This document shows positions 614-56,530 of a stretch of 59,024 nt of DNA, in pieces. The position numbers and the translations under genes were made by a program. The stretch is from Escherichia phage Utah. The first letter of the stretch is position 1, and the number at the start of each line of letters is the position of its first letter. The notes under the pieces are model-generated. The model was not told the DNA's origin. It worked only from the letters and a program-made list of their open reading frames with translations, and searched no databases. The stretch lies in sequence record KY014601.1. One strand, written 5' to 3'.

Positions 614-901
614 ATGCAGCACGATGAATGCCGTGAAACGTTGATGGATTTCAAACGACAATTACAGACACATTTGAAGGCGATTTTACGTCGTCAGGGG
701 GTCACACAGAGCGCGCTTGCGACGATGATCGGCGTACACCAGTCAAGATTAAGTTTCATGCTTAACAGTGACGCAGACAGAGTTTCGATCGATAAACTCA
801 TTGAAGCGATAGTGAAACTGGATGGCGTGTTTATGGTGAAAATCGGAGATCAAACAGACATAAATCGAGTGCGGTACAAGGAGTGCGAAGACAACGTTTG
901 A
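614..901 (+). CDS. XRE-family helix-turn-helix transcriptional regulator (Cro/CI-like)
   Basis: 95 aa; HTH segment QSALATMIGVHQSRLSFMLN typical of XRE/HTH_3 regulators; own promoter and terminator. Confidence 0.6.
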   Translation: MQHDECRETLMDFKRQLQTHLKAILRRQGVTQSALATMIGVHQSRLSFMLNSDADRVSIDKLIEAIVKLDGVFMVKIGDQTDINRVRYKECEDNV

Positions 902-3805: not shown

Positions 3806-3847
3806 AGTGATGCCCTCGCGTAATGTGCGCGTGTTATAGATTTGCGG

Positions 3848-3876
3848 ATATTATATCCGGGCTTGACATCTGTCAA
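3848..3876 (-). promoter_or_regulatory. Leftward sigma70-like promoter (TTGACA-17-TAATAT) embedded in two palindromes
   Basis: Minus strand: TTGACA (3871-3876), 17-nt spacer, TAATAT (3848-3853); plus-strand palindromes GGATAT-T-ATATCC (3846-3858) and TTGACA-TC-TGTCAA (3863-3876) overlap -10 and -35. Confidence 0.55.
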
Positions 3877-38125: not shown

Positions 38126-40321
38126 GTGGCGGATGAAGACGTAGGTATCAGCGCGGCCAAACTGGTCGGCGAAGCCTTGCAGTGGAATGGCGCGAAGCCC
38201 AAACTCACATACCTGTCCCGGTGTGTGGGCGAAGCGTTAGCCATTTCCGCATTGAACATCGACGCGGCGAAAAACTTCGGGGAGGTTTTGCAGTGGGACG
38301 GTAAATTGCCGTCCATCTTCCGCGCGGCCGAGTTGGTCGGCGAAGTGCTGGCGATTCAGAAGATGGAGATCCGCGCGTCAACGATGGTCTGTGAAGCACT
38401 GGTCAAAGAGCCGCAATTTATGGCGGCCGAAATGATCTGCGAGGCTATCGGTCAGGCGGCCACGGAACGGCCACCGCTTTACGCAGATGCGGTTTATCAG
38501 TACGTCACGCAGCACGATGTCGTACCGCCGTTGTCGGATGTCATTTCGCCGGAAAGTCTGTACACGTTGTGGAATTACGCCATTGTCCAGCGGCCGATCG
38601 ATGCCCCGATTTCCTACAACATCGTGAAGCAGGCGGTGACGCTGTCCGTTCTGGCGTCGCCTATCGTGACTATTTCGTACGACAAGGTGAAGACCGCGTG
38701 GTCGTATGCCGTGGTGTCCGCGACGCTCGGTGACTTCCCGCTGCCGGATGAAATGTGGTCGAAGATCAGCACGAAACAGGCGTGGAATCTGGTATTGCAG
38801 TCGATCGACATCCCGTACGTCCCGACGTCTGGTGTGTTCGTTCGCCATGAATCGACGCTGGTGGTTCAGGCCCATCCGCTGCCGATGTACACGACGCCTG
38901 CGTCCGTGAAGTCGAACGTGGTTCTGGCCGCGCAGAAGCGCCCGGTTGAACGACTCCCGCGCTCAAGGACTCGCGTGGCGCAGGCATTATCGCAGGCCGT
39001 TACCGCGTTGCCGATCCCGATGCCCCGGTCAAACGTGTTCGCCGCGCAGACGCTGTCACAGGCGGTCATCCCGGCGGACTTCGTTGACCCGACTGTCGGT
39101 GTCGAGCACGCGGCCGCAGTGACGTCGTATGCTGTTTGCGAGTATCAGGTGTCGCTTCCTATCAGTTACACGCGCGCGAAGACCCTGACGCCGCTGGTGC
39201 TGCAATTTAGCGATAACCAACGAACCATCCCGCTGTCCACGATGCGCACCAAACACGTTTCGTCTCAGTTCTTGGTCAAGTCTGACTTGCGCCCGGTGCT
39301 GTCTCGGATGCGCACCAAACACGTTTCGTCTCAGTTCTTGGTCAAGTCTGACTTGCGCCCGGTGCTGTCTCGGACGCGCGTTAAACAGGTACGCGGCTAT
39401 GCGGTGCGGGCGGAAGAGTACACGCCTCCGATTAACCTGCTGGTATGGTCGCGCGCTGACGCTGTTCGCATGTCGGTGGTGCAGCAGGCAACGGACTACC
39501 CTGACCCGGGAATACCTACAACGTCGGCCATCGTTAGTGCGGCCACGGCGTACCACGTCATGAAAGCGCTGGACTACGAAGACCCGAACGATATGTGGGA
39601 GGCGAGCAAGGTTCAGACCGTGCCGCAGTTATTAGAGAAGGTGGTGAAAGCCCAACCGCTCCGGCTCCCGATCTCGTACGCTCCGCTGGCGCAATTTGTT
39701 GAACTGGTGACGCGGTACCAATACATGCCGCCTCCGGGTGAAGTTGCCGAGTCCGGTATCCATGTTCGTCAGGTAATGCAGCCAGTGGCGTTCCGCGCGA
39801 CGTACCCTGACCCGACTGTCCCGGTATCCTACCTGACGGTCAATCAGGTACTGGAGCACATCGCGACCCCGGCCGACTACCCGGACGCCCACCTGCCGAC
39901 GTCGGACGCGATTGTAAATCAGGTATTGGAACACGTTGCGCAGATTGACGATTTCCCTGATCCCGGTACCATGTTCCGGCCGCTTATTGTCAGCCAGATC
40001 ATTCAGCAGGCGGCACAGGATGCGTCTTACCCGGATTGGAGCACACTGCATAAACCGCTTGCGGTTCAGCAGGTAATTCAGCATGTATCAATGACGGCGG
40101 AATACCCTGACAAGGACGTCCCGCAATCATTTGCAAAGGTGTCTCAAGTTTTGCAGCACTATGCCGATAAAGCTAATTACCCAGACAAAGATGCTCCCCA
40201 ATCCACGCTACGAGTCCGTCAGGTACTTGAGCAGGTAATGATGCGCGACAAGTCGATGTACGAAATGCCGCAGCCACCACGGAAACATCGGGTGCAAATC
40301 ACTTGCCGCTTTGTGTACTGA
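38126..40321 (+). CDS. Highly repetitive protein (N-terminal VGEALQW repeats, tandem 22-aa duplication, C-terminal YPD repeats); possible fibre
   Basis: 731 aa; GTG start after AAGGGGG RBS; repeats LVGEALQWNG / FGEVLQWDG / LVGEVLAI; six or more YPDx units with VNQVLEH / VSQVLQH. Confidence 0.5.
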   Translation: MADEDVGISAAKLVGEALQWNGAKPKLTYLSRCVGEALAISALNIDAAKNFGEVLQWDGKLPSIFRAAELVGEVLAIQKMEIRASTMVCEALVKEPQFMAAEMICEAIGQAATERPPLYADAVYQYVTQHDVVPPLSDVISPESLYTLWNYAIVQRPIDAPISYNIVKQAVTLSVLASPIVTISYDKVKTAWSYAVVSATLGDFPLPDEMWSKISTKQAWNLVLQSIDIPYVPTSGVFVRHESTLVVQAHPLPMYTTPASVKSNVVLAAQKRPVERLPRSRTRVAQALSQAVTALPIPMPRSNVFAAQTLSQAVIPADFVDPTVGVEHAAAVTSYAVCEYQVSLPISYTRAKTLTPLVLQFSDNQRTIPLSTMRTKHVSSQFLVKSDLRPVLSRMRTKHVSSQFLVKSDLRPVLSRTRVKQVRGYAVRAEEYTPPINLLVWSRADAVRMSVVQQATDYPDPGIPTTSAIVSAATAYHVMKALDYEDPNDMWEASKVQTVPQLLEKVVKAQPLRLPISYAPLAQFVELVTRYQYMPPPGEVAESGIHVRQVMQPVAFRATYPDPTVPVSYLTVNQVLEHIATPADYPDAHLPTSDAIVNQVLEHVAQIDDFPDPGTMFRPLIVSQIIQQAAQDASYPDWSTLHKPLAVQQVIQHVSMTAEYPDKDVPQSFAKVSQVLQHYADKANYPDKDAPQSTLRVRQVLEQVMMRDKSMYEMPQPPRKHRVQITCRFVY
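39241..39372 (+). repeat. Perfect 66-bp tandem duplication inside the repeat-protein gene
   Basis: 39241-39306 is identical to 39307-39372 (GATGCGCACCAAACACGTTTCG...GTGCTGTCTCG), encoding MRTKHVSSQFLVKSDLRPVLSR twice. Confidence 0.9.
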
Positions 40322-40339
40322 CAATTGACGGGTTAATAT
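40311..40339 (+). promoter_or_regulatory. Candidate promoter for lysis cassette (TTGTGT-17-TAATAT) directly abutting a terminator hairpin
   Basis: TTGTGT 40311-40316, TAATAT 40334-40339; predicted start would fall inside the 5' arm of the 40344-40370 hairpin. Confidence 0.35.
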
Positions 40340-40343
40340 TCTT

Positions 40344-40370
40344 AGCGGGCTTGTCCCGCTAATTTTTTTT
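40344..40370 (+). terminator. Rho-independent terminator after repeat-protein gene
   Basis: AGCGGG-CTTGT-CCCGCT followed by TTTTTTTT (40363-40370). Confidence 0.7.
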
Positions 40371-40385
40371 GTGAGGAAGCACCCA

Positions 40386-40724
40386 ATGAGCGAAATGGAA
40401 CGGGAACGGCCGGGGGATACCTCCGGCGGCATCAAGTTAGACTTGTCTGTCAATCTCCCCACGATTCTGACGATGGCTTCGATGCTGGTGGCGGCGGTAC
40501 TGTACGTCAATAACCGCTTCGCCGACCTATCAAATCAGAACACGCAGACGGACACCCGGCTTACCAACGTAGAGAAACGTCAGGACTCCACTGAAGCGGC
40601 GTTCACGGTTCTCCGGGCCGAAACCGTCTCGCAAAACTCCGCCCTTCGATCAGACCTTCGCGCCGACATGCGCGACCTGAAACAAAGCGTGGATACCCTA
40701 TCTTCCCAAATGATGAGGAAATAA
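40386..40724 (+). CDS. Putative holin-like membrane protein with C-terminal coiled-coil
   Basis: 112 aa from ATG 40386 (RBS GAGGAAG); single TM-like segment LPTILTMASMLVAAVLYV; directly upstream of lysin-like gene. Confidence 0.4.
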   Translation: MSEMERERPGDTSGGIKLDLSVNLPTILTMASMLVAAVLYVNNRFADLSNQNTQTDTRLTNVEKRQDSTEAAFTVLRAETVSQNSALRSDLRADMRDLKQSVDTLSSQMMRK

Positions 40725-40727
40725 CCG

Positions 40728-41441
40728 ATGGCTAAACAGAAGCCGCGCGGGATTCGCAATAACAACCCGGGCAACATCGAGTGGGGGTCGCCGTGGCAAG
40801 GGCTGATCCCGCGTAACGAGGCGACGGACAGCCGCTTCGCGCAGTTCAAAGACCCGGCATCCGGCATCCGCGCCATTGCTGTCACCCTGACCACCTACTA
40901 CGACAAGCGCAAGGCCAACGACGGCAGCAAAATCGACTCGGTTCGCGAAGTGATCGAGCGGTGGGCACCCGCCGTTGAGAACAACGTATCTGCATACGCT
41001 AAACAGGTGGCCGCCGTTCTGGCCGTTGACCCGAATAGCGAAACGCTGAATCTCCACGACTACGACACCATGCGCGGTCTGGTGGAAGGCATCATCCGCC
41101 ACGAAAACGGGAACCCGGAAGCGTTCGGCCTGACGCCGTACAGCAACGCGAATATGTGGTACTCGGACGAAGTGATCGAGGAGGGTCTGCGCCGGGCGGG
41201 CATCGTTAAGGCGGCCAAGCCTGTTAACCGTACCACCGTGGCCGCGACAAGCGTGGCAGGACTCGGCGCGGCGCAACTGGTTGACATGGTACAGCCCGTC
41301 AAGGCTGCGATGGACAGCGCCCACGGTGATATTTCTTCCGGTGATTGGGTACGCATCGCATTCGGCGCGGCCACAATCGCGATTGGCCTGTACATGGGAT
41401 GGGTCGCGTACCGGAAGCATCGGGCCGGGGCCGCTGCATGA
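40728..41441 (+). CDS. Putative peptidoglycan hydrolase (endolysin-like) with C-terminal transmembrane segment
   Basis: 237 aa; N-terminal GIRNNNPGNIEW motif that I recall from phage muramidase-type proteins (family uncertain); C-terminal hydrophobic WVRIAFGAATIAIGLYMGWVAY; followed by spanins. Confidence 0.45.
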   Translation: MAKQKPRGIRNNNPGNIEWGSPWQGLIPRNEATDSRFAQFKDPASGIRAIAVTLTTYYDKRKANDGSKIDSVREVIERWAPAVENNVSAYAKQVAAVLAVDPNSETLNLHDYDTMRGLVEGIIRHENGNPEAFGLTPYSNANMWYSDEVIEEGLRRAGIVKAAKPVNRTTVAATSVAGLGAAQLVDMVQPVKAAMDSAHGDISSGDWVRIAFGAATIAIGLYMGWVAYRKHRAGAAA

Positions 41442-41692
41442 CGGGGCTACTCGCCCGGATTAAGACGGGCGTCCTTGCGGCGCTCGTTTTCGTTGTGGCC
41501 CTCTTCGGCGTCTGGCGGGCAGGACGCGCGAAGGGCAAACAGGATCAGATTAATAACCAGAACTACGACACGTTGCGGGAACAGGCAAACGCGGATAAAA
41601 ATGTGGCCGAGGTGCATAATGAAATCAATAAACTCCCTGATGGTGGCGCTAACGATCTGCTTCGCCGTAAGTGGATGCGTCGAAAGGATTAA
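41438..41692 (+). CDS. Inner-membrane spanin (Rz-like)
   Basis: 84 aa from ATG 41438 (ATGA overlap with previous stop); N-terminal TM GVLAALVFVVALFGVW, then charged coiled-coil region. Confidence 0.5.
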   Translation: MTGLLARIKTGVLAALVFVVALFGVWRAGRAKGKQDQINNQNYDTLREQANADKNVAEVHNEINKLPDGGANDLLRRKWMRRKD

Positions 41693-41822
41693 CCCTGCGC
41701 CGTCTTTCTGTTCTGTCGCGCGCGCCATCTACATCGGCGAGGAAGACGTGCTGACAGATGAAACCGCACGGCAGATCGCCACCCACGATGAAATCGGCGA
41801 ACGGCTATGCGGCTGGAAATAG
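41619..41822 (+). CDS. Outer-membrane lipoprotein spanin (Rz1-like), overlapping i-spanin in another frame
   Basis: 67 aa from ATG 41619; signal peptide with lipobox LTICFAVSGC. Confidence 0.5.
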   Translation: MKSINSLMVALTICFAVSGCVERINPAPSFCSVARAIYIGEEDVLTDETARQIATHDEIGERLCGWK

Positions 41823-42284
41823 TTAAATGGTCGGGTGGGTAATAATCACAGTACGTTCACCCTCGATTGTCTGGTGGTACCGCAGTGAGGACACCAGATG
41901 ATCGAGGTTATTGAAGACCGGGATATTCAGCCGCTTCGCCTCTTCCACCTCAGCGCGGGTACCGGAACTGCGCATCGCATCTTCGCCAATCAGCAGAACC
42001 GCGTCACAACGGCGCATCAATTCCATCGTGCATTCCAGCCAATATTCGTCCGGTATCTCGCCCTCTGTCTTGTGCTCGAAGTGGGCCGTGTTCAGGTGCG
42101 GAGTAACCGGGAACATCTTGTGGACGTAAAGTTGATCGACAACCGACACGGCCGTCTCTTCGGCTTTCAGGATGTTGACCGTCGTCGGAACGGTGCAGCC
42201 CGAACCGATGATGTACGGGCGGTACGGCCCGGCCAGATAGATCATGACGGGCTTGGCCGCCGGGTTACACATATTCACGTTCAT
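41823..42284 (-). CDS. Nucleoside 2'-deoxyribosyltransferase / DNPH1-like protein
   Basis: 153 aa; VMIYLAGPY N-terminal motif and LLIGEDAMRSSGTRAEVEEA resembling the catalytic-Glu region of deoxyribosyltransferase-fold enzymes. Confidence 0.5.
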   Translation of the reverse strand: MNVNMCNPAAKPVMIYLAGPYRPYIIGSGCTVPTTVNILKAEETAVSVVDQLYVHKMFPVTPHLNTAHFEHKTEGEIPDEYWLECTMELMRRCDAVLLIGEDAMRSSGTRAEVEEAKRLNIPVFNNLDHLVSSLRYHQTIEGERTVIITHPTI

Positions 42285-42565
42285 ATTAAGCCTCGGTTAT
42301 ATTCGTCCACGTATTTTTCATTTTCAGGAGATCGGTCTACCTGATTAATCTCGCTGAACTCGCAGGAAATAATATCCCCACTAGGCAGGCGCACCCGCCA
42401 AAAAACATCCTCTTCACGCGGCCCGGTGCGTTCCCATTCGAGCACGGTTCCGTAGTATTTATGCCCGTTGAATCGGTCAGTGAAATGCACGGAGTCGCCT
42501 TTAATCGGCCAGCCCGGTTTTATCTTGGCACGGTATTTCCGTTTTATAGCCTCAACGTCGATCAT
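42281..42565 (-). CDS. Hypothetical protein
   Basis: 94 aa; operon context, 4-nt overlap with downstream gene. Confidence 0.45.
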   Translation of the reverse strand: MIDVEAIKRKYRAKIKPGWPIKGDSVHFTDRFNGHKYYGTVLEWERTGPREEDVFWRVRLPSGDIISCEFSEINQVDRSPENEKYVDEYNRGLI

Positions 42566-42640
42566 ACTTCATCCTCCTCAAAGTCTTCGTCAAAAAGGTC
42601 GGACTGGCCGCCGGAAAAGCTGACGACAAGCGGCGCTTTG

Positions 42641-43354
42641 TTAGTTGGCATCGGTTGAGTCCTCGCATAATGGTATGAAGTCCTTCGGGCCGTCGCCTGA
42701 ACCGGGGAAGCGCCGGAAGACCATTTCGTCTTCAATGGTCAGTTTATCCTTGCTGTTCCCGCGACGATAGAAGTCGGCCATGCCGCTCCCGTACGAACGG
42801 TCAATCCCGGCACCGTACGGATCTTGCGGGCAAAGTTCCAGCGCCAGCACTTCTCGCCAGTCAGGACGATCGATGCGGCTGACGATGCGATGGTTATTCG
42901 ACACCCGGCAGTACCCCGAGGCTATCAGCGTTTCCGCCAGCCGGGCCTGTTCCTTGCCGCGCATCGTTTTCGCGCGCTTGACATCCTCTTTCCTTGCCCG
43001 GGCGAAATACTCCCGCGAGAAGCGGCTACCGACGTTCTCCGCGAAGATGCGCTGGTCTTTGATGACCATGCCCCATTTCCGTCGGCTACCTTCTTCCACG
43101 TAGCGAATGGCCCCGGCGTAGCGCAGCAGCATGGCATCGGTCAGGCGGGCATTCTTCGGGTCTTTGGCTTTCCACCAGCCGTACACCTCCACCATGCGGG
43201 CCATCGCCTTGTCGCAGTACCACAACTCGGCGTGGCTGGTGGGCGAGTATGTTGGGTAAGACTTTGCGCCGCCGTCAAACGCCCGGTAGCAGTACCAGAC
43301 CCCGCCGCTGTACTGGAAGTGCGGTATCTTGTGATGCTCTTTCATCGTAGCCAT
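42641..43354 (-). CDS. Hypothetical protein
   Basis: 237 aa; Trp/Tyr-rich N-region; no motif recognised. Confidence 0.5.
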   Translation of the reverse strand: MATMKEHHKIPHFQYSGGVWYCYRAFDGGAKSYPTYSPTSHAELWYCDKAMARMVEVYGWWKAKDPKNARLTDAMLLRYAGAIRYVEEGSRRKWGMVIKDQRIFAENVGSRFSREYFARARKEDVKRAKTMRGKEQARLAETLIASGYCRVSNNHRIVSRIDRPDWREVLALELCPQDPYGAGIDRSYGSGMADFYRRGNSKDKLTIEDEMVFRRFPGSGDGPKDFIPLCEDSTDAN

Positions 43355-43355
43355 G

Positions 43356-43808
43356 TCAGTCCTCGGCCAGTTCAGGATTAATGGTAAACCGCAGCCCGTA
43401 CTTAAAATCGTTTACGGACAGCAGATGGATGATGTCGTCCGAGTTTTCTATCTTGATTCCCTTCGCGGCCAGCGCATCCCTCGGCGAAAGCCACGGATCG
43501 ATAGTTAACTGGCGGTATACCGGATCCATGTGTATCGGCGAGCCTTCGCGCACGATGAACGGCAGCGGGTACGGACGGCCAGACCGGGCGTGGATACGGC
43601 GTGGCCCGGGCGAACGGGTAATACCGTAGAACGATGCCATAACGTCGGGCAGCCCTTTCCCGTACATCGAGCGTACGACTTCTTCGTCGCCGCGCAGGAG
43701 CCGCTTAACGATATGCCGGACAAACGGGTACAGATCCCACTTCGCGCGTTGGCGGATGACCGAAGCCTGTCGGCGGGCCTCCTGCTGGAATAATGATCCG
43801 CGTTTCAT
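43356..43808 (-). CDS. Hypothetical protein
   Basis: 150 aa; tightly packed in leftward operon. Confidence 0.5.
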   Translation of the reverse strand: MKRGSLFQQEARRQASVIRQRAKWDLYPFVRHIVKRLLRGDEEVVRSMYGKGLPDVMASFYGITRSPGPRRIHARSGRPYPLPFIVREGSPIHMDPVYRQLTIDPWLSPRDALAAKGIKIENSDDIIHLLSVNDFKYGLRFTINPELAED

Positions 43809-44152
43809 TTTTTATATTTATCCTCTTCGTTGAAATTACGGACAGGCACGCCGTCCCAAATGCGTACGATGCCCGGGTGCGCCTCGCGCCACGATCCGAG
43901 CAGGTGGTCAGCCCACTCCTTCAAGTCTTCGCTGTATGCGGCCAGAAGTCGGTCTTCAATGGACTGGCGTTCCGCTGCGGACATCGGCCCGACCTGATGG
44001 ATGATGTCAAACCAGATCTCGTCGTGGACACCGTTGACGGCCACCAGATAGCCTTTTGCTTCCAGATCTGCGATGACGGCGTGGGTGCGGTCGGCTTTCA
44101 TGCGCATGTAGTTCATGCGGCGGCCCTCCCCCATAAGATTTGCAATGTGCAT
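43805..44152 (-). CDS. Hypothetical protein
   Basis: 115 aa; start uncertain (internal Met at 44116 would give a 2-nt overlap instead of 40 nt). Confidence 0.45.
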   Translation of the reverse strand: MHIANLMGEGRRMNYMRMKADRTHAVIADLEAKGYLVAVNGVHDEIWFDIIHQVGPMSAAERQSIEDRLLAAYSEDLKEWADHLLGSWREAHPGIVRIWDGVPVRNFNEEDKYKK

Positions 44153-44394
44153 GGCGGCTCGTCAGGATCGGAATAGATTTCGAACCCGGCGTCCTTTATC
44201 CAGCCGATCAGCATGGCGCGGGATTTATCGGACAGCGGGTGGTCGTTGTGTAACAGCGCGACCGTAGTGGTTGTCAGCCCGGCCGATGCGGCCCGGCGGA
44301 TAAGATGCTCCACCTCGCCACGCACTTCAATCGCTTCGGCAGTGTGGTGGTCAGTTGCGGCTTGATACATTTCTTCGGCGGTGATAGTCAGCAT
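44113..44394 (-). CDS. Hypothetical protein, first gene of leftward unit 4
   Basis: 93 aa; ATG 44394 preceded by GGGGG RBS and promoter at 44438-44467. Confidence 0.5.
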   Translation of the reverse strand: MLTITAEEMYQAATDHHTAEAIEVRGEVEHLIRRAASAGLTTTTVALLHNDHPLSDKSRAMLIGWIKDAGFEIYSDPDEPPCTLQILWGRAAA

Positions 44395-44415
44395 GTTGCC
44401 CCCTAAAGTAAAAAT

Positions 44416-44435
44416 CCCCGTTGTTGCCTTCGGGG
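44416..44435 (-). terminator. Terminator-like hairpin overlapping the start region of promoter 44438-44467
   Basis: Minus strand: CCCCG-AAGGCAACAA-CGGGG followed by AUUUU; lies between -10 and RBS. Confidence 0.45.
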
Positions 44436-44437
44436 AT

Positions 44438-44467
44438 AATATAGGTTATACACGCGACGTATGTCAA
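44438..44467 (-). promoter_or_regulatory. Leftward promoter with conserved spacer element (TTGACA-TACGTCGCGTGTATAAC-CTATAT)
   Basis: Minus strand -35 TTGACA (44462-44467); spacer contains ACGTCGCGTGTA core shared with promoters at 46494, 49756, 53083. Confidence 0.6.
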
Positions 44468-44474
44468 ACGGTTT

Positions 44475-44987
44475 CTAAGACTTTCTTTTCCGGGCGTGCT
44501 CCAGTCGATCACCGTGGCCCTTCTCGACCATGAAATCGCGGGTCTGTTTGTGCAGGTTGGCGATCGTTTCCTTCGTTTTCCACCAGCGCGCCACTATCCC
44601 TTCGCGCACTTCCCGTTCGCGGAACAGGACGGCCAAGTCATTCGCGGTGATGTCATACCCTTCGCACGCGGCCAAAACTCCGGCCTTGAATTCGTAGAAC
44701 AGGCTTTGGATCTCCCGGAATTCGGCCTCGGTTACGATCTCGATATTGACCGTTTTCCCTTCACCGATGTCGTCCTCGGTAAACAGGCACCCGGCTTCGC
44801 CAATGGCGCGGCCATCGTCCTTCCGGTAGCGCGTATTCCCTACGATGATCTGCGTCGGCGTGGTGCGCTCTACGCGTCGTTTCACGGCGAAGGTTACTTC
44901 CGGGCTGTACCCGATACGGATGCTGTTACGCTCCAGTGTCATGTCGCCAGTTTCGAGGTGTCCGAATCTCAATTTTTTATCGGCCAT
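44475..44987 (-). CDS. Hypothetical protein
   Basis: 170 aa; last gene of leftward unit 3. Confidence 0.5.
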   Translation of the reverse strand: MADKKLRFGHLETGDMTLERNSIRIGYSPEVTFAVKRRVERTTPTQIIVGNTRYRKDDGRAIGEAGCLFTEDDIGEGKTVNIEIVTEAEFREIQSLFYEFKAGVLAACEGYDITANDLAVLFREREVREGIVARWWKTKETIANLHKQTRDFMVEKGHGDRLEHARKRKS

Positions 44988-45223
44988 TCTGCGTATTCTC
45001 CCTTCGGTAATTCGTCAGTCACGTCGCGCTCGGCCCATTTCAGGAACGCTTCGCGGGTACAACTCGGGTAGTGTCGGCCGAAGCCTACGACCGGGCCGTC
45101 GTACTGGATGTGCGTGGCCCCGATGTACAGGATAGTGCGGTCGTTCACCAGTCCGTTTCGGTTCTGCGGCCGTTTACCGCGATAGGTGCGGCCGACTTTA
45201 AGTTTTAACTCTTCATCGGCCAT
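44969..45223 (-). CDS. Hypothetical protein
   Basis: 84 aa; overlapping neighbours. Confidence 0.45.
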   Translation of the reverse strand: MADEELKLKVGRTYRGKRPQNRNGLVNDRTILYIGATHIQYDGPVVGFGRHYPSCTREAFLKWAERDVTDELPKGEYAEWPIKN

Positions 45224-45458
45224 CGGTGTCCACCTCGACTTCGAACGTGCGCGGAACGGTCATGGTCAGCACGTCATTCTCGGTGAACGGTGACAGCGGT
45301 TCGTCGCCCGGCTGGAAGCGCAGCGTGACGCTGCCAACGTTGTGATACGTGATATAGCGAAGGCGGAACTGCTCGCCAAATATGGTAGCGAGTACGCCCG
45401 GCTTAACGTCTCCTGCGGGAATTTTCATGGTCATAGTCTCCAGTCTAACGGCTCCCAT
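45213..45458 (-). CDS. Hypothetical protein
   Basis: 81 aa. Confidence 0.45.
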   Translation of the reverse strand: MGAVRLETMTMKIPAGDVKPGVLATIFGEQFRLRYITYHNVGSVTLRFQPGDEPLSPFTENDVLTMTVPRTFEVEVDTDGR

Positions 45459-45625
45459 TGGCCGTCTCGTTTGATGTAGCAGCCGCTTAACGGGCTGTAT
45501 TTGGTTGGTAGTTCGGTCTGGACGCTGACGTCGTTACACCCGATCGCCGCGCCCACACGGCCAATGACAAACAGCACACCGCAGATAATCAATACAAACA
45601 GCGTTAGCGCAGCGATCTTCTTCAT
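45431..45625 (-). CDS. Small secreted or membrane protein (possible lipoprotein)
   Basis: 64 aa; N-terminal signal-like KKIAALTLFVLIICGVLFVIG with Cys. Confidence 0.45.
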   Translation of the reverse strand: MKKIAALTLFVLIICGVLFVIGRVGAAIGCNDVSVQTELPTKYSPLSGCYIKRDGQWEPLDWRL

Positions 45626-45635
45626 GGTGGCCCCT

Positions 45636-46454
45636 TTATTCCTTCGGTGGATTTGATTGGTGGCGATTTAGCCAGATGACAATCCCGGCAGTATAATTGA
45701 TCACGCCGAGCAACTCCCTAACCCTTTGGTCATGCGTTGGCAGGTTGACGCCTTCTACGACCTTCTTGCACACCTGATAGACCAATCCAAGCGGGCTATC
45801 GATCAGATCAGAAATGGCGTTCATCGGCTGCTGGCTGAACGGCAGGTCATTGGCGTGTCGCTCCCGCCCTTTACCATACGCGGCTTGCGTCAGCGCATCA
45901 TGCAGCACTTTGACTAATTCGGAATAATCGTTACTGTCTTTGATGTTCCGGAATTCGTACCGCCATGACCGGGAGGCCGACGGTGCAACGGCTTCCGGCG
46001 CGACGAGGGATTCGTTAAGCGGCCAGCCCTGCGCGAAGGCGAACATGATGTAATTCATCGCGTCGATGTACTGATTCTCTTCGAGACAACGACGAATGGC
46101 GTCGGAACATTGCTTCGGCCAGTCCGGCTGCATCCATCCCAATTCCAGCCCCGGGTTTTTGCGCTCGAACTGCACCAGACGGTCAAGCATGTAGCCGAAC
46201 GTCTTCTCGGCCTGTTCAACCGTTGGCGCGCTCAGTTTAGGGCGGCGCAGCACGATGACCGTCTCGGCGTCGGCGGCTTTCGGGATGGCGATCTCATTGT
46301 CCTTCATGGAATTGAGAAGGCCGAGCACGTAGTCGGTCGCGTCGTCGTCCGTTTCAAAGTCGTCCATGTCGAGGTTTAACGCGTTCATCACTGCGTTGCG
46401 GAAACGCTGCGCGGATGGCTTGCCAGCGTGCTTTTGTTTCTGTACGTCTACCAT
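45636..46454 (-). CDS. Hypothetical protein
   Basis: 272 aa; ATG 46454 lies right after hairpin T-run without clear SD, so true start may be internal (Met 46388). Confidence 0.5.
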   Translation of the reverse strand: MVDVQKQKHAGKPSAQRFRNAVMNALNLDMDDFETDDDATDYVLGLLNSMKDNEIAIPKAADAETVIVLRRPKLSAPTVEQAEKTFGYMLDRLVQFERKNPGLELGWMQPDWPKQCSDAIRRCLEENQYIDAMNYIMFAFAQGWPLNESLVAPEAVAPSASRSWRYEFRNIKDSNDYSELVKVLHDALTQAAYGKGRERHANDLPFSQQPMNAISDLIDSPLGLVYQVCKKVVEGVNLPTHDQRVRELLGVINYTAGIVIWLNRHQSNPPKE

Positions 46455-46463
46455 AATAAAAAA

Positions 46464-46491
46464 CTCCCGTTGGTGGATTAACCTTCGGGAG
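46464..46491 (-). terminator. Intrinsic terminator hairpin overlapping promoter 46494-46522
   Basis: Minus strand: CUCCCG-(16 nt loop)-CGGGAG followed by UUUUUU (plus A-run 46458-46463). Confidence 0.6.
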
Positions 46492-46493
46492 TA

Positions 46494-46522
46494 ATATTAA
46501 TTACACATGTCGCGTATGTCAA
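46494..46522 (-). promoter_or_regulatory. Leftward promoter (TTGACA-17-TAATAT) with conserved spacer element
   Basis: -35 TTGACA 46517-46522, spacer TACGCGACATGTGTAAT, -10 TAATAT 46494-46499. Confidence 0.6.
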
Positions 46523-49755: not shown

Positions 49756-49784
49756 ATATTAGTCGTACACGCGACGTACGTCAA
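49756..49784 (-). promoter_or_regulatory. Leftward promoter (TTGACG-17-TAATAT) with conserved spacer element
   Basis: -35 TTGACG 49779-49784, spacer TACGTCGCGTGTACGAC, -10 TAATAT 49756-49761. Confidence 0.6.
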
Positions 49785-53082: not shown

Positions 53083-53111
53083 ACAATAGTTCTACACGCG
53101 ACGTATGTCAA
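53083..53111 (-). promoter_or_regulatory. Leftward early promoter (TTGACA-17-TATTGT) with conserved spacer element
   Basis: -35 TTGACA 53106-53111, spacer TACGTCGCGTGTAGAAC, -10 TATTGT 53083-53088. Confidence 0.55.
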
Positions 53112-53164
53112 TTCATTTCATCCAGTAATTATGATGACCGGGTGACGCTCCAGTTTAGTTTCAG

Positions 53165-53409
53165 CCGGATGACGTTTTGAAGTAAGGCGGGTGGCCGGGC
53201 CGCCGGGCTTCAACCGGGTAACTTTTTCAAGTAAGCGCGGAACGTCGCAACGACAACCGGACAGGTTTTTCAAGTAAGCCCGTCGGCCGGGTGAAATTGC
53301 CCCGACGCTGGTGGACAAAACCGTCAGCCGGGTAGGTTTTTGAAGTAAGGACTGGCCGCGTTGTTCAAAATTTTTCAACCGGGTAACTTTTTCAAGTAAG
53401 CCCGTCGGG
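53165..53409. repeat. Five direct iteron-like repeats, consensus CCGG(G/A)NA(A/G)NNTTTT(C/G)AAGTAAG
   Basis: Copies start at 53165, 53214, 53257, 53328, 53379 (spacing 43-71 bp); followed by AT-rich patch and a GC-rich block 53440-53700; no ORF. Confidence 0.6.
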
Positions 53410-53706: not shown

Positions 53707-53753
53707 TTGACGCACGCCGCGTATATCATCTACATTTGAATTCCCTTCGGGGG
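53707..53753 (+). promoter_or_regulatory. Rightward promoter unit with conserved core and 5' UUCG stem-loop
   Basis: TTGACGCACGCCGCGTATATCAT-CTACAT then CCCTTCGGGGG; about 47-nt unit nearly identical to 56484-56530. Confidence 0.55.
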
Positions 53754-56483: not shown

Positions 56484-56530
56484 TTGACGCACGCCGCGTA
56501 TATCATTTATATTTAAATTCCCTTCGGGGG
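56484..56530 (+). promoter_or_regulatory. Second rightward promoter unit (TTGACG-17-TTATAT) with conserved core and UUCG stem-loop
   Basis: TTGACGCACGCCGCGTATATCAT-TTATAT then CCCTTCGGGGG; gene ATG 56575. Confidence 0.6.

Follow-up and report, generated by a model that had tools for sequence, protein, structure and literature searches.

Promoter-abutting hairpins at two early-operon junctions of the Chi-like phage Utah: candidate terminators that would spare local transcripts

Escherichia phage Utah carries, at two internal junctions of its leftward early operon, a sigma-70 promoter whose -10 hexamer runs directly, or after a single nucleotide (nt), into a GC-rich hairpin and a T-run. We consider it probable that these junctions (site 2, 44467-44410; site 3, 46522-46458; both on the minus strand) are composite cassettes, with the upstream unit's terminator overlying the discriminator and start-site bases of the promoter that follows. 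The whole stretch of DNA analysed, called the window here, is 59,024 bp long and begins with GGTGCGCAGAGC. Its length and cohesive end agree with those published for phage Utah (PMC5374247), so the window is probably the complete genome of this E. coli phage, a Chi-like siphovirus (Casjensviridae). Across the 7-kb region of interest, identity is 99.5% to Salmonella phage TS13 and 94-98% to many Chivirus genomes, and ~116 Chivirus records matched the region. It takes in the last part of the rightward late operon, where the tail-fibre gene is followed by the lysis genes, the point at which the leftward early operon ends convergently with it, and the two internal junctions of that early operon.

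The proposed mechanism is as follows. Each cassette of ~80 nt would span the gap from one stop codon to the following start codon and hold five elements: an A-rich upstream tract, a sigma-70 promoter close to consensus, an operator-like spacer repeat, an intrinsic terminator and a ribosome-binding site (RBS). The C-rich 5' arm of the terminator would double as the promoter discriminator, which is 6-7 nt long and separates the -10 from +1. We infer from the sequence, its folding and its conservation that a polymerase arriving from upstream transcribes both arms, a 7-bp GC stem forms beside the U-run and transcription terminates. A polymerase initiating locally, ~7-8 nt past the -10 (at G46486 or G44431), would make an RNA lacking the 5' arm and would read into the downstream genes. 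Because the only Shine-Dalgarno (SD) sequence at site 3, as in most orthologues, is the 3' arm itself, read-through RNA would also be translationally masked, and the SD of the local mRNA would be free. The net effect would be that each early gene block is expressed solely from its own promoter, and these promoters are probably co-regulated.

Geometry and folding of the overlapping hairpins

The promoter scan matched 11 of 12 sigma-70 consensus positions at site 2 and 10 of 12 at site 3 (coordinates in Table 1). A first-pass annotation had proposed three promoter-hairpin overlaps, with each hairpin starting 5-10 nt from its -10 hexamer. Two of the three overlaps, sites 2 and 3, held up. At the third, on the plus strand (site 1), the terminator is real and the promoter is not convincing, with only 7 of 12 matches. 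The adjacency is likewise real and closer than proposed, since the stem begins 0 nt after the -10 at site 2, 1 nt (a T) after it at site 3 and 2 nt after the -10-like box at site 1. Across sites 3, 2 and 1 the stems have 7-8 bp with 5-6 GC pairs and predicted free energies of -10.9 to -14.1 kcal/mol, and are followed by T5 to T8. A strong sigma-70 match leading directly into a stem of 6 or more bp (4 or more of them GC) and a T-run occurs twice in the window. The mean in 100 dinucleotide shuffles was 0.01, and none of the 100 reached two.

Sigma-70 promoters usually start at the seventh or eighth base after the -10, preferably at a purine preceded by a pyrimidine. This geometry, together with the preference for a pyrimidine at -1 and a purine at +1, points to predicted starts at G46486 (site 3) and G44431 (site 2). 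Each is the last base of the 5' arm, the first G in CCC-GAAGG. Because of this position, local transcripts would be unable to fold the hairpin. In folding calculations for both sites, read-through RNA ending at the U-run gave a stem pair probability of 0.96-0.98. RNA begun at +7 or +8 folded with only 0 to -2.6 kcal/mol, leaving at most 2 bp of the terminator at site 3 and none at site 2. The earlier proposal that the terminator is intact in read-through RNA and missing from local RNA is thus supported at sites 2 and 3, by the folding and by the comparisons below.

The first-pass annotation had also stated that ATG 46454 lacks an SD. This was mistaken: GGGAG (46468-46464) lies 9 nt upstream, within the 3' arm. 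The coupling that it suggested between the hairpin and this translation start is borne out in silico, as the SD is masked only in read-through RNA. There, its bases have a probability of 0.00 of being unpaired. In RNA from G46486 the values are 0.4-0.7 for four of the five bases and 0.15 for the last. The same arrangement, with the 3' arm (GGGAG or GGGGG) as the SD and the U-run as the spacer, occurs in all but one of the orthologous lineages of the site 3 type examined (for example CGGGAGTTTTTTATG, CGGGGGTTTTTTATG and CGAGGGAATTTTTCATG). Modules of the site 2 type have a separate SD past the U-run, yet all retain T5-6 directly after the stem. Because the U-run is kept even there, this argues that termination would be the common function and SD masking an added layer.

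A related layout was seen in Burkholderia phage AH2, where a terminator-like hairpin (ATCCCTACCG...CGGTAGGGAT) followed by TTTTC abuts an ATG (L208:13540-13573). Its 3' arm holds the sole SD-like bases, giving the same terminator-as-RBS layout, and no recognisable promoter of the early family described below accompanies it.

Site 1 is of another kind. Its terminator begins 21 nt after the tail-fibre stop (40319-40321) and precedes the lysis cassette, whose ATG is at 40386. The sole -35 at a proper (17-nt) spacing from TAATAT is TTGTGT (40311-40316), which lies inside the tail-fibre open reading frame (ORF), and neither the promoter scan nor a relaxed scan called a promoter here. Transcripts starting at +5 to +7 would retain a 4-6-bp GC stem (-4 to -9.5 kcal/mol) located 3 nt from the U-run, and the proposed escape of local RNA is therefore weak at this site. 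We rejected site 1 as a member of the early promoter family, as it has neither a TTGACA at the right spacing nor the spacer palindrome. Site 1 is an ordinary conserved terminator separating the tail-fibre and lysis genes, and any promoter at the -10-like box next to it would be weak at best.

Conservation and placement across related phages

Orthologous junctions were compared in ST-101 (Chivirus), Providencia phage PatoteraRojo (Redjacvirus), Serratia phage Smarc5, Klebsiella phage KPN N54 (Yonseivirus) and Salmonella phage SAP012 (Zhonglingvirus), and in 22 IMG/VR contigs located via the adjacent methylase gene. The order of promoter, hairpin and T-run is kept at all of them. Two of the IMG/VR contigs with this layout are more distant. 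At least five related phage lineages share it. The stem starts 0-1 nt past the -10 in 30 of 30 unique modules, with loops of 4-17 nt. The arm itself varies, with about nine sequences among the 30 modules (ACTCCCG, ATCCCCG, ACCCCCG, GACTCCCG, TCCCTTG, GTCCCCGTAG, ACCCCTGA, AACCCTGTAT and GCTCC). In a 15-sequence alignment, 93% of the cells of the consensus helix are paired; sliding the 3' partners lowers this to 31-57%. Cells in which both bases have changed number 10, compared with 3.7 +/- 1.4 in shuffles (0 of 500 shuffles match the observed value), and three pairs have such double changes. The compensatory changes and the fixed register thus indicate that the hairpin is under selection as a structure and that its register relative to the -10 is also selected.

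Conservation extends over the whole cassette. Between Utah and Smarc5 it is ~80% identical, an estimate made by reading both sequences and not from a computed alignment, and the proteins flanking it, diverged homologues in Smarc5, are only 35-42% identical. In KPN N54, the cassette sits between unrelated genes. The flanks of the loop, GAAGG...(A/C)CAACG (44421-44430 and 46470-46485, minus strand), are conserved across genera and the middle of the loop is variable (orthologues L002-L006 and L127-L145). These flanks correspond to the would-be first bases of the local mRNA and to the bases just 5' of the SD, and their conservation plausibly reflects a constraint on the initially transcribed region or leader. 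A broader reading, to which we give somewhat less than an even chance, is that the ~80-nt cassette is an all-in-one autonomous expression unit across enterobacterial Casjensviridae, stopping and silencing upstream transcripts while local ones are immune. Its terminator would consist of the discriminator and the initially transcribed bases of the promoter, and at some sites the 3' arm and U-run would form the RBS. Because the cassette is far better conserved than the neighbouring genes, it may also be a portable joint at which early gene blocks are exchanged by recombination, a role that has been proposed for the promoter-early stem-loops (PeSLs) of phage T4.

Family promoters in ten genomes were then surveyed for terminator placement. 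All 17 promoters with an overlapping hairpin have the stop codon of a co-directional ORF within 19 nt of the -35, and a credible upstream terminator was found at none of the 17, the one upstream match (L132) being a weak 5-bp stem. At nine further internal promoters the terminator sits 20-33 nt upstream, and the downstream hairpin is absent. Promoters that open an operon and rightward ones lack both. Since the overlapping hairpin and the conventional upstream terminator never co-occur, the two appear interchangeable. Such mutual exclusivity is the pattern expected if the overlapping hairpin serves as the terminator of the upstream unit. Utah itself has one conventional junction (49833-49755). 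Like sites 2 and 3, it has a promoter of the same family, lies at an internal junction of the leftward early operon and presumably serves the same purpose; unlike them, its elements are separate (terminator, 22 nt, -35) and occupy a gap of ~190 nt instead of ~80 nt.

A generic promoter scan of IMG/VR, run as an informal control, returned mostly unrelated sigma-70 promoters, few of which had a hairpin and T-run abutting the -10. Among contigs unrelated to Chi, a hairpin and T-run lie 1 nt past the -10 in L046 and 6 nt past it in a group comprising L050, L059, L066 and L081. Promoter-terminator overlap may be more widespread among phages.

Alternative explanations and known systems

Several points weigh against the composite cassette. 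The start positions are predictions from general sigma-70 rules. Efficient intrinsic terminators typically have loops of 3-8 nt, and the Utah loops are longer, with 10 nt at site 2 and 16 nt at site 3. The terminator scan of the window called neither hairpin. The PatoteraRojo and SAP012 orthologues do have textbook loops of 4-7 nt. A distant orthologue, L144 from IMG/VR, retains the stem with a degraded T-run (AATTTCAATG), and Burkholderia phage AH2 has the promoter family without the overlapping terminator. Nor is insulation universal, since internal family promoters without any terminator occur, among them 56484(+) and KPN N54 9478. Finally, a terminator downstream of the -10 cannot shield the promoter from occlusion by an incoming polymerase.

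Some of these points would fit a hairpin that acts mainly after transcription. It would mask the SD, in a fold-back like that of IS10 and IS50, or stabilise the 3' end of the upstream mRNA, or both; the T-run would be an A/U-rich spacer and termination weak. The sole SD lies in the 3' arm, with the T-run as spacer, at site 3 and in all but one lineage examined, L144 has kept the stem while its T-run decayed, and the long loops argue for modest termination efficiency. We nevertheless regard this explanation as unlikely. The site-2-type modules have their own SD further on and yet all keep the T-run directly after the stem, a canonical upstream terminator takes the place of the overlap at sister promoters, and the Redjacvirus and Zhonglingvirus loops are of textbook length.

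The layout could also be a by-product of packing, in which an ordinary terminator and a promoter were squeezed into a short gap. The overlap would then have no regulatory meaning other than saving ~35 bp, and the promoter would also separate the stop codon from the hairpin. The genome is indeed dense, and the intergenic gaps at sites 2 and 3 are 77-80 nt, compared with ~190 nt at the conventional junction at 49784. Against this, the register of 0-1 nt is fixed over about nine stem variants in several genera, the loop-flank motifs (GAAGG...CCAACG) are conserved, and so is the cassette, far beyond its flanking genes; together these argue for selection on the exact geometry. Packing alone is therefore a similarly improbable account. 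It predicts the same transcripts as the composite cassette and differs from it only in the reason for the layout.

Were the local start to lie upstream of the stem, the hairpin would be a promoter-proximal attenuator or the end of a short RNA. Local transcripts would then hold the whole hairpin and mostly stop at ~35-45 nt unless antiterminated. The spacer palindrome does sit between the -35 and the -10, the position of the Q-binding element in lambda. Moreover, ONT-cappable-seq identified 42 terminators in 5' untranslated regions (5'UTRs) right after promoters in Pseudomonas phages (PMC10914365). The geometric argument runs the other way, as the stem lies 0-1 nt past the -10 in all 30 modules. 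We know of no sigma-70 start that near the -10, and reading the sequence of sites 2 and 3 revealed no usable alternative -10/-35 pair further upstream. Nor does attenuation predict the mutual exclusivity with an upstream terminator. We rejected this reading because the stem abuts the -10, and hold it very unlikely. The terminators of lambda PR'-tR' and of the Pseudomonas phage 5'UTRs are likewise within tens of nt of a promoter; unlike the Chi-like cassette, where geometry would place the start inside the stem, their transcripts start upstream of the complete hairpin and are themselves terminated.

It is scarcely credible that the inverted repeat past the -10 serves as DNA to which a dimeric protein binds, as an operator, at the +1 region. 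The palindrome does overlap the start site and the phage does encode a Cro/C1-type helix-turn-helix (HTH) protein, but the arms vary and stay complementary, the distance between them ranges over 4-17 nt and every hairpin has a T-run behind it. This is the signature of an RNA hairpin terminator, not of a site recognised by a protein, and led us to reject this reading.

The composite cassette, which we favour, recalls several known systems. T4-type PeSLs are short, repeated intergenic cassettes of the early region that are more conserved than the flanking genes (Arbiol 2010, PMC2839356; Comeau 2014, PMC4122927), and their stem-loop lies just upstream of the cassette's own promoter (PMC4122927). 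The Chi-like cassette resembles them in combining an A/T-rich tract, a sigma-70 early promoter, a stem-loop terminator, an SD and a start codon in a repeated intergenic unit. The window holds two overlapping copies and one conventional copy, and such cassettes recur across genera. It differs in that the stem is directly downstream of the -10, sharing the discriminator and start-site bases, and in belonging to Casjensviridae siphoviruses. At the left end of IS200, a rho-independent terminator in the promoter region blocks impinging transcription, with the hairpin at nt 12-34 and the start at about nt 40 (PMC4513863). Here too, a terminator embedded in the resident promoter region would stop outside transcripts, with SD sequestration as a second level, although the escape of Chi-like local RNA is deduced from the predicted start. 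In IS200 the hairpin is wholly upstream of the start and a separate stem-loop holds the SD, whereas the Chi-like start would lie inside the hairpin, and at site 3 a single hairpin would do both. Davis, Simons and Kleckner in 1985 and Krebs and Reznikoff in 1986 reportedly described fold-back inhibition in IS10 and IS50, with the resident start within the 5' arm of an inverted repeat. As there, only externally initiated RNA would fold and hide its RBS; in silico this holds at site 3 and not at site 2, where the SD is outside the stem. Unlike those transposons, in which only translation is blocked and there is no U-run terminator, the Chi-like cassette lies in a phage operon and has a U-run.

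Because insertion sequences and T4 PeSLs use related logic, the principle is not new. The cassette merges the ideas of PeSLs, IS200 and IS10/IS50 in a geometry that we did not find described in the literature searched. The searches turned up no account of Chi-like promoters or terminators, the Chi and Utah papers are silent on the cassette, and regulatory features are absent from the Chi GenBank record. A paper on one Chi-like phage reported zero rho-independent terminators (PMC9783114). An Rfam scan of the whole window matched no family. If the composite cassette is correct, one hairpin would tell the origin of a transcript in a very compact design: it would both stop and silence RNA that comes in from upstream, and RNA begun locally would not be affected by it. 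This would explain separate promoter control of successive early gene blocks in Chi-like phages and would offer a ready-made ~45-bp insulated promoter part for synthetic biology. The sites provide the first transcription-map hypotheses for a family of phages in which regulation has received almost no study.

The early promoter family and other features

A pattern search and alignment placed the promoters of sites 2 and 3 in a family of six in the window, at 53111(-), 49784(-), 46522(-), 44467(-), 53707(+) and 56484(+). The pattern was expected to match 0.54 times and matched six. The members have in common an A-rich upstream tract and TTGAC(A/G)yACGnnnCGyrTr...TAATAT(T), and every one has an inverted repeat, ACAyACG-N3-CGyrTrT, over the -35 and spacer. 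This palindrome is perfect in Serratia phage Smarc5 (ACACACG-CGA-CGTGTGT), and in Burkholderia phage AH2 the family is recognisable as TGACAC-N9-GTGTC (TTGACAC...GTGTC). With its arms conserved and its centre free, the repeat resembles an operator through which a dimeric regulator could control all the early promoters.

Table 1. Features of the three sites and of the early promoter family (positions in the window unless a contig is given)
Feature	Position	Strand	Description
Site 1 -10-like box	40334-40339	+	TAATAT
Site 1 terminator	40342-40362, T8 40363-40370	+	canonical intrinsic, TTAGCGGG-CTTGT-CCCGCTAA, 5-nt loop
Site 2 upstream gene stop	44477-44475	-	TAG of 170-aa gene, 7 nt before -35
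Site 2 -35 hexamer	44467-44462	-	TTGACA
Site 2 spacer	44461-44444	-	18 nt, inverted repeat ACATACG-TCG-CGTGTAT
Site 2 -10 hexamer	44443-44438	-	TATATT
Site 2 hairpin	44437-44414	-	ATCCCCG 44437-44431 / CGGGGAT 44420-44414, 7 bp, -10.9 kcal/mol
Site 2 loop	between arms 44437-44431 and 44420-44414	-	10 nt, AAGGCAACAA
Site 2 T-run	to 44410	-	TTTT, then A, CTTT
Site 2 SD	44404-44399	-	AGGGGG, separate from stem, then CAAC
Site 2 downstream gene start	44394-44392	-	ATG of 93-aa gene
Site 3 upstream gene stop	46534-46532	-	TAA of Dam-like methylase gene (Pfam Dam match), 9 nt before -35
Site 3 -35 hexamer	46522-46517	-	TTGACA
Site 3 spacer	46516-46500	-	17 nt, operator-like inverted repeat ACATACG-N3-CATGTGT, as in the promoter family
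Site 3 -10 hexamer	46499-46494	-	TAATAT; alternative register AATATT 46498-46493
Site 3 hairpin	46492-46463	-	ACTCCCG 46492-46486 / CGGGAGT 46469-46463, 7 bp, 16-nt loop, -14.1 kcal/mol
Site 3 SD	46468-46464	-	GGGAG, within stem 3' arm, 9 nt upstream of ATG 46454
Site 3 T-run	46462-46458	-	TTTTT, doubles as SD-to-ATG spacer, then ATT
Site 3 downstream gene start	46454-46452	-	ATG of 272-aa gene
Sister module, conventional order	49833-49755	-	terminator AAGCCCGC...GCGGGCTT with T-run 49833-49807, -13.2 kcal/mol
Sister module promoter	49784-49756	-	TTGACG-N17-TAATAT, -35 22 nt after terminator, no downstream hairpin
First leftward family promoter (operon start)	53083..53111	-	no terminator
First rightward family promoter	53707..53736	+	then CCC-TTCG-GGG hairpin 53743-53752, no T-run
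Internal rightward family promoter	56484..56513	+	no terminator; CCC-TTCG-GGG hairpin 56520-56529
Spacer inverted repeats	44444-44461, 46500-46516, 49762-49778, 53089-53105, 53713-53730, 56490-56507; also L004:14762, L208 gaps		

Pfam searches with 20 flanking and early proteins, a subset of the genes, returned Dam, domains of unknown function, primase, polymerase and one Cro/C1 HTH protein, and no Q-like antiterminator among the 20. The HTH protein has 95 aa (Pfam HTH_37/HTH_3; 614-901, plus strand), is the first gene past the left cos end and is a candidate for binding to the promoter palindromes. Its gene is followed at 913-933 by a bidirectional terminator (AAGGCCGG...CCGGCCTT).

Both rightward family promoters have a CCC-TTCG-GGG tetraloop hairpin 6 nt past the -10 and a G-rich tract, with no T-run, and these hairpins may stabilise the 5' ends of their mRNAs. 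In the ~600-bp gap between the divergent early promoters are five direct repeats of ~31 nt (consensus CAACCGGGTAnnTTTTTCAAGTAAG) at 53160, 53209, 53252, 53323 and 53374, spanning 53160-53404. They look like iterons, suggesting a replication origin or a regulator-binding array. Outside the early family, a strong sigma-70 promoter, TTGACA-N17-TAATAT, lies on the minus strand at 3847-3876, with its -35 within a perfect palindrome (TTGACAGATGTCAA).

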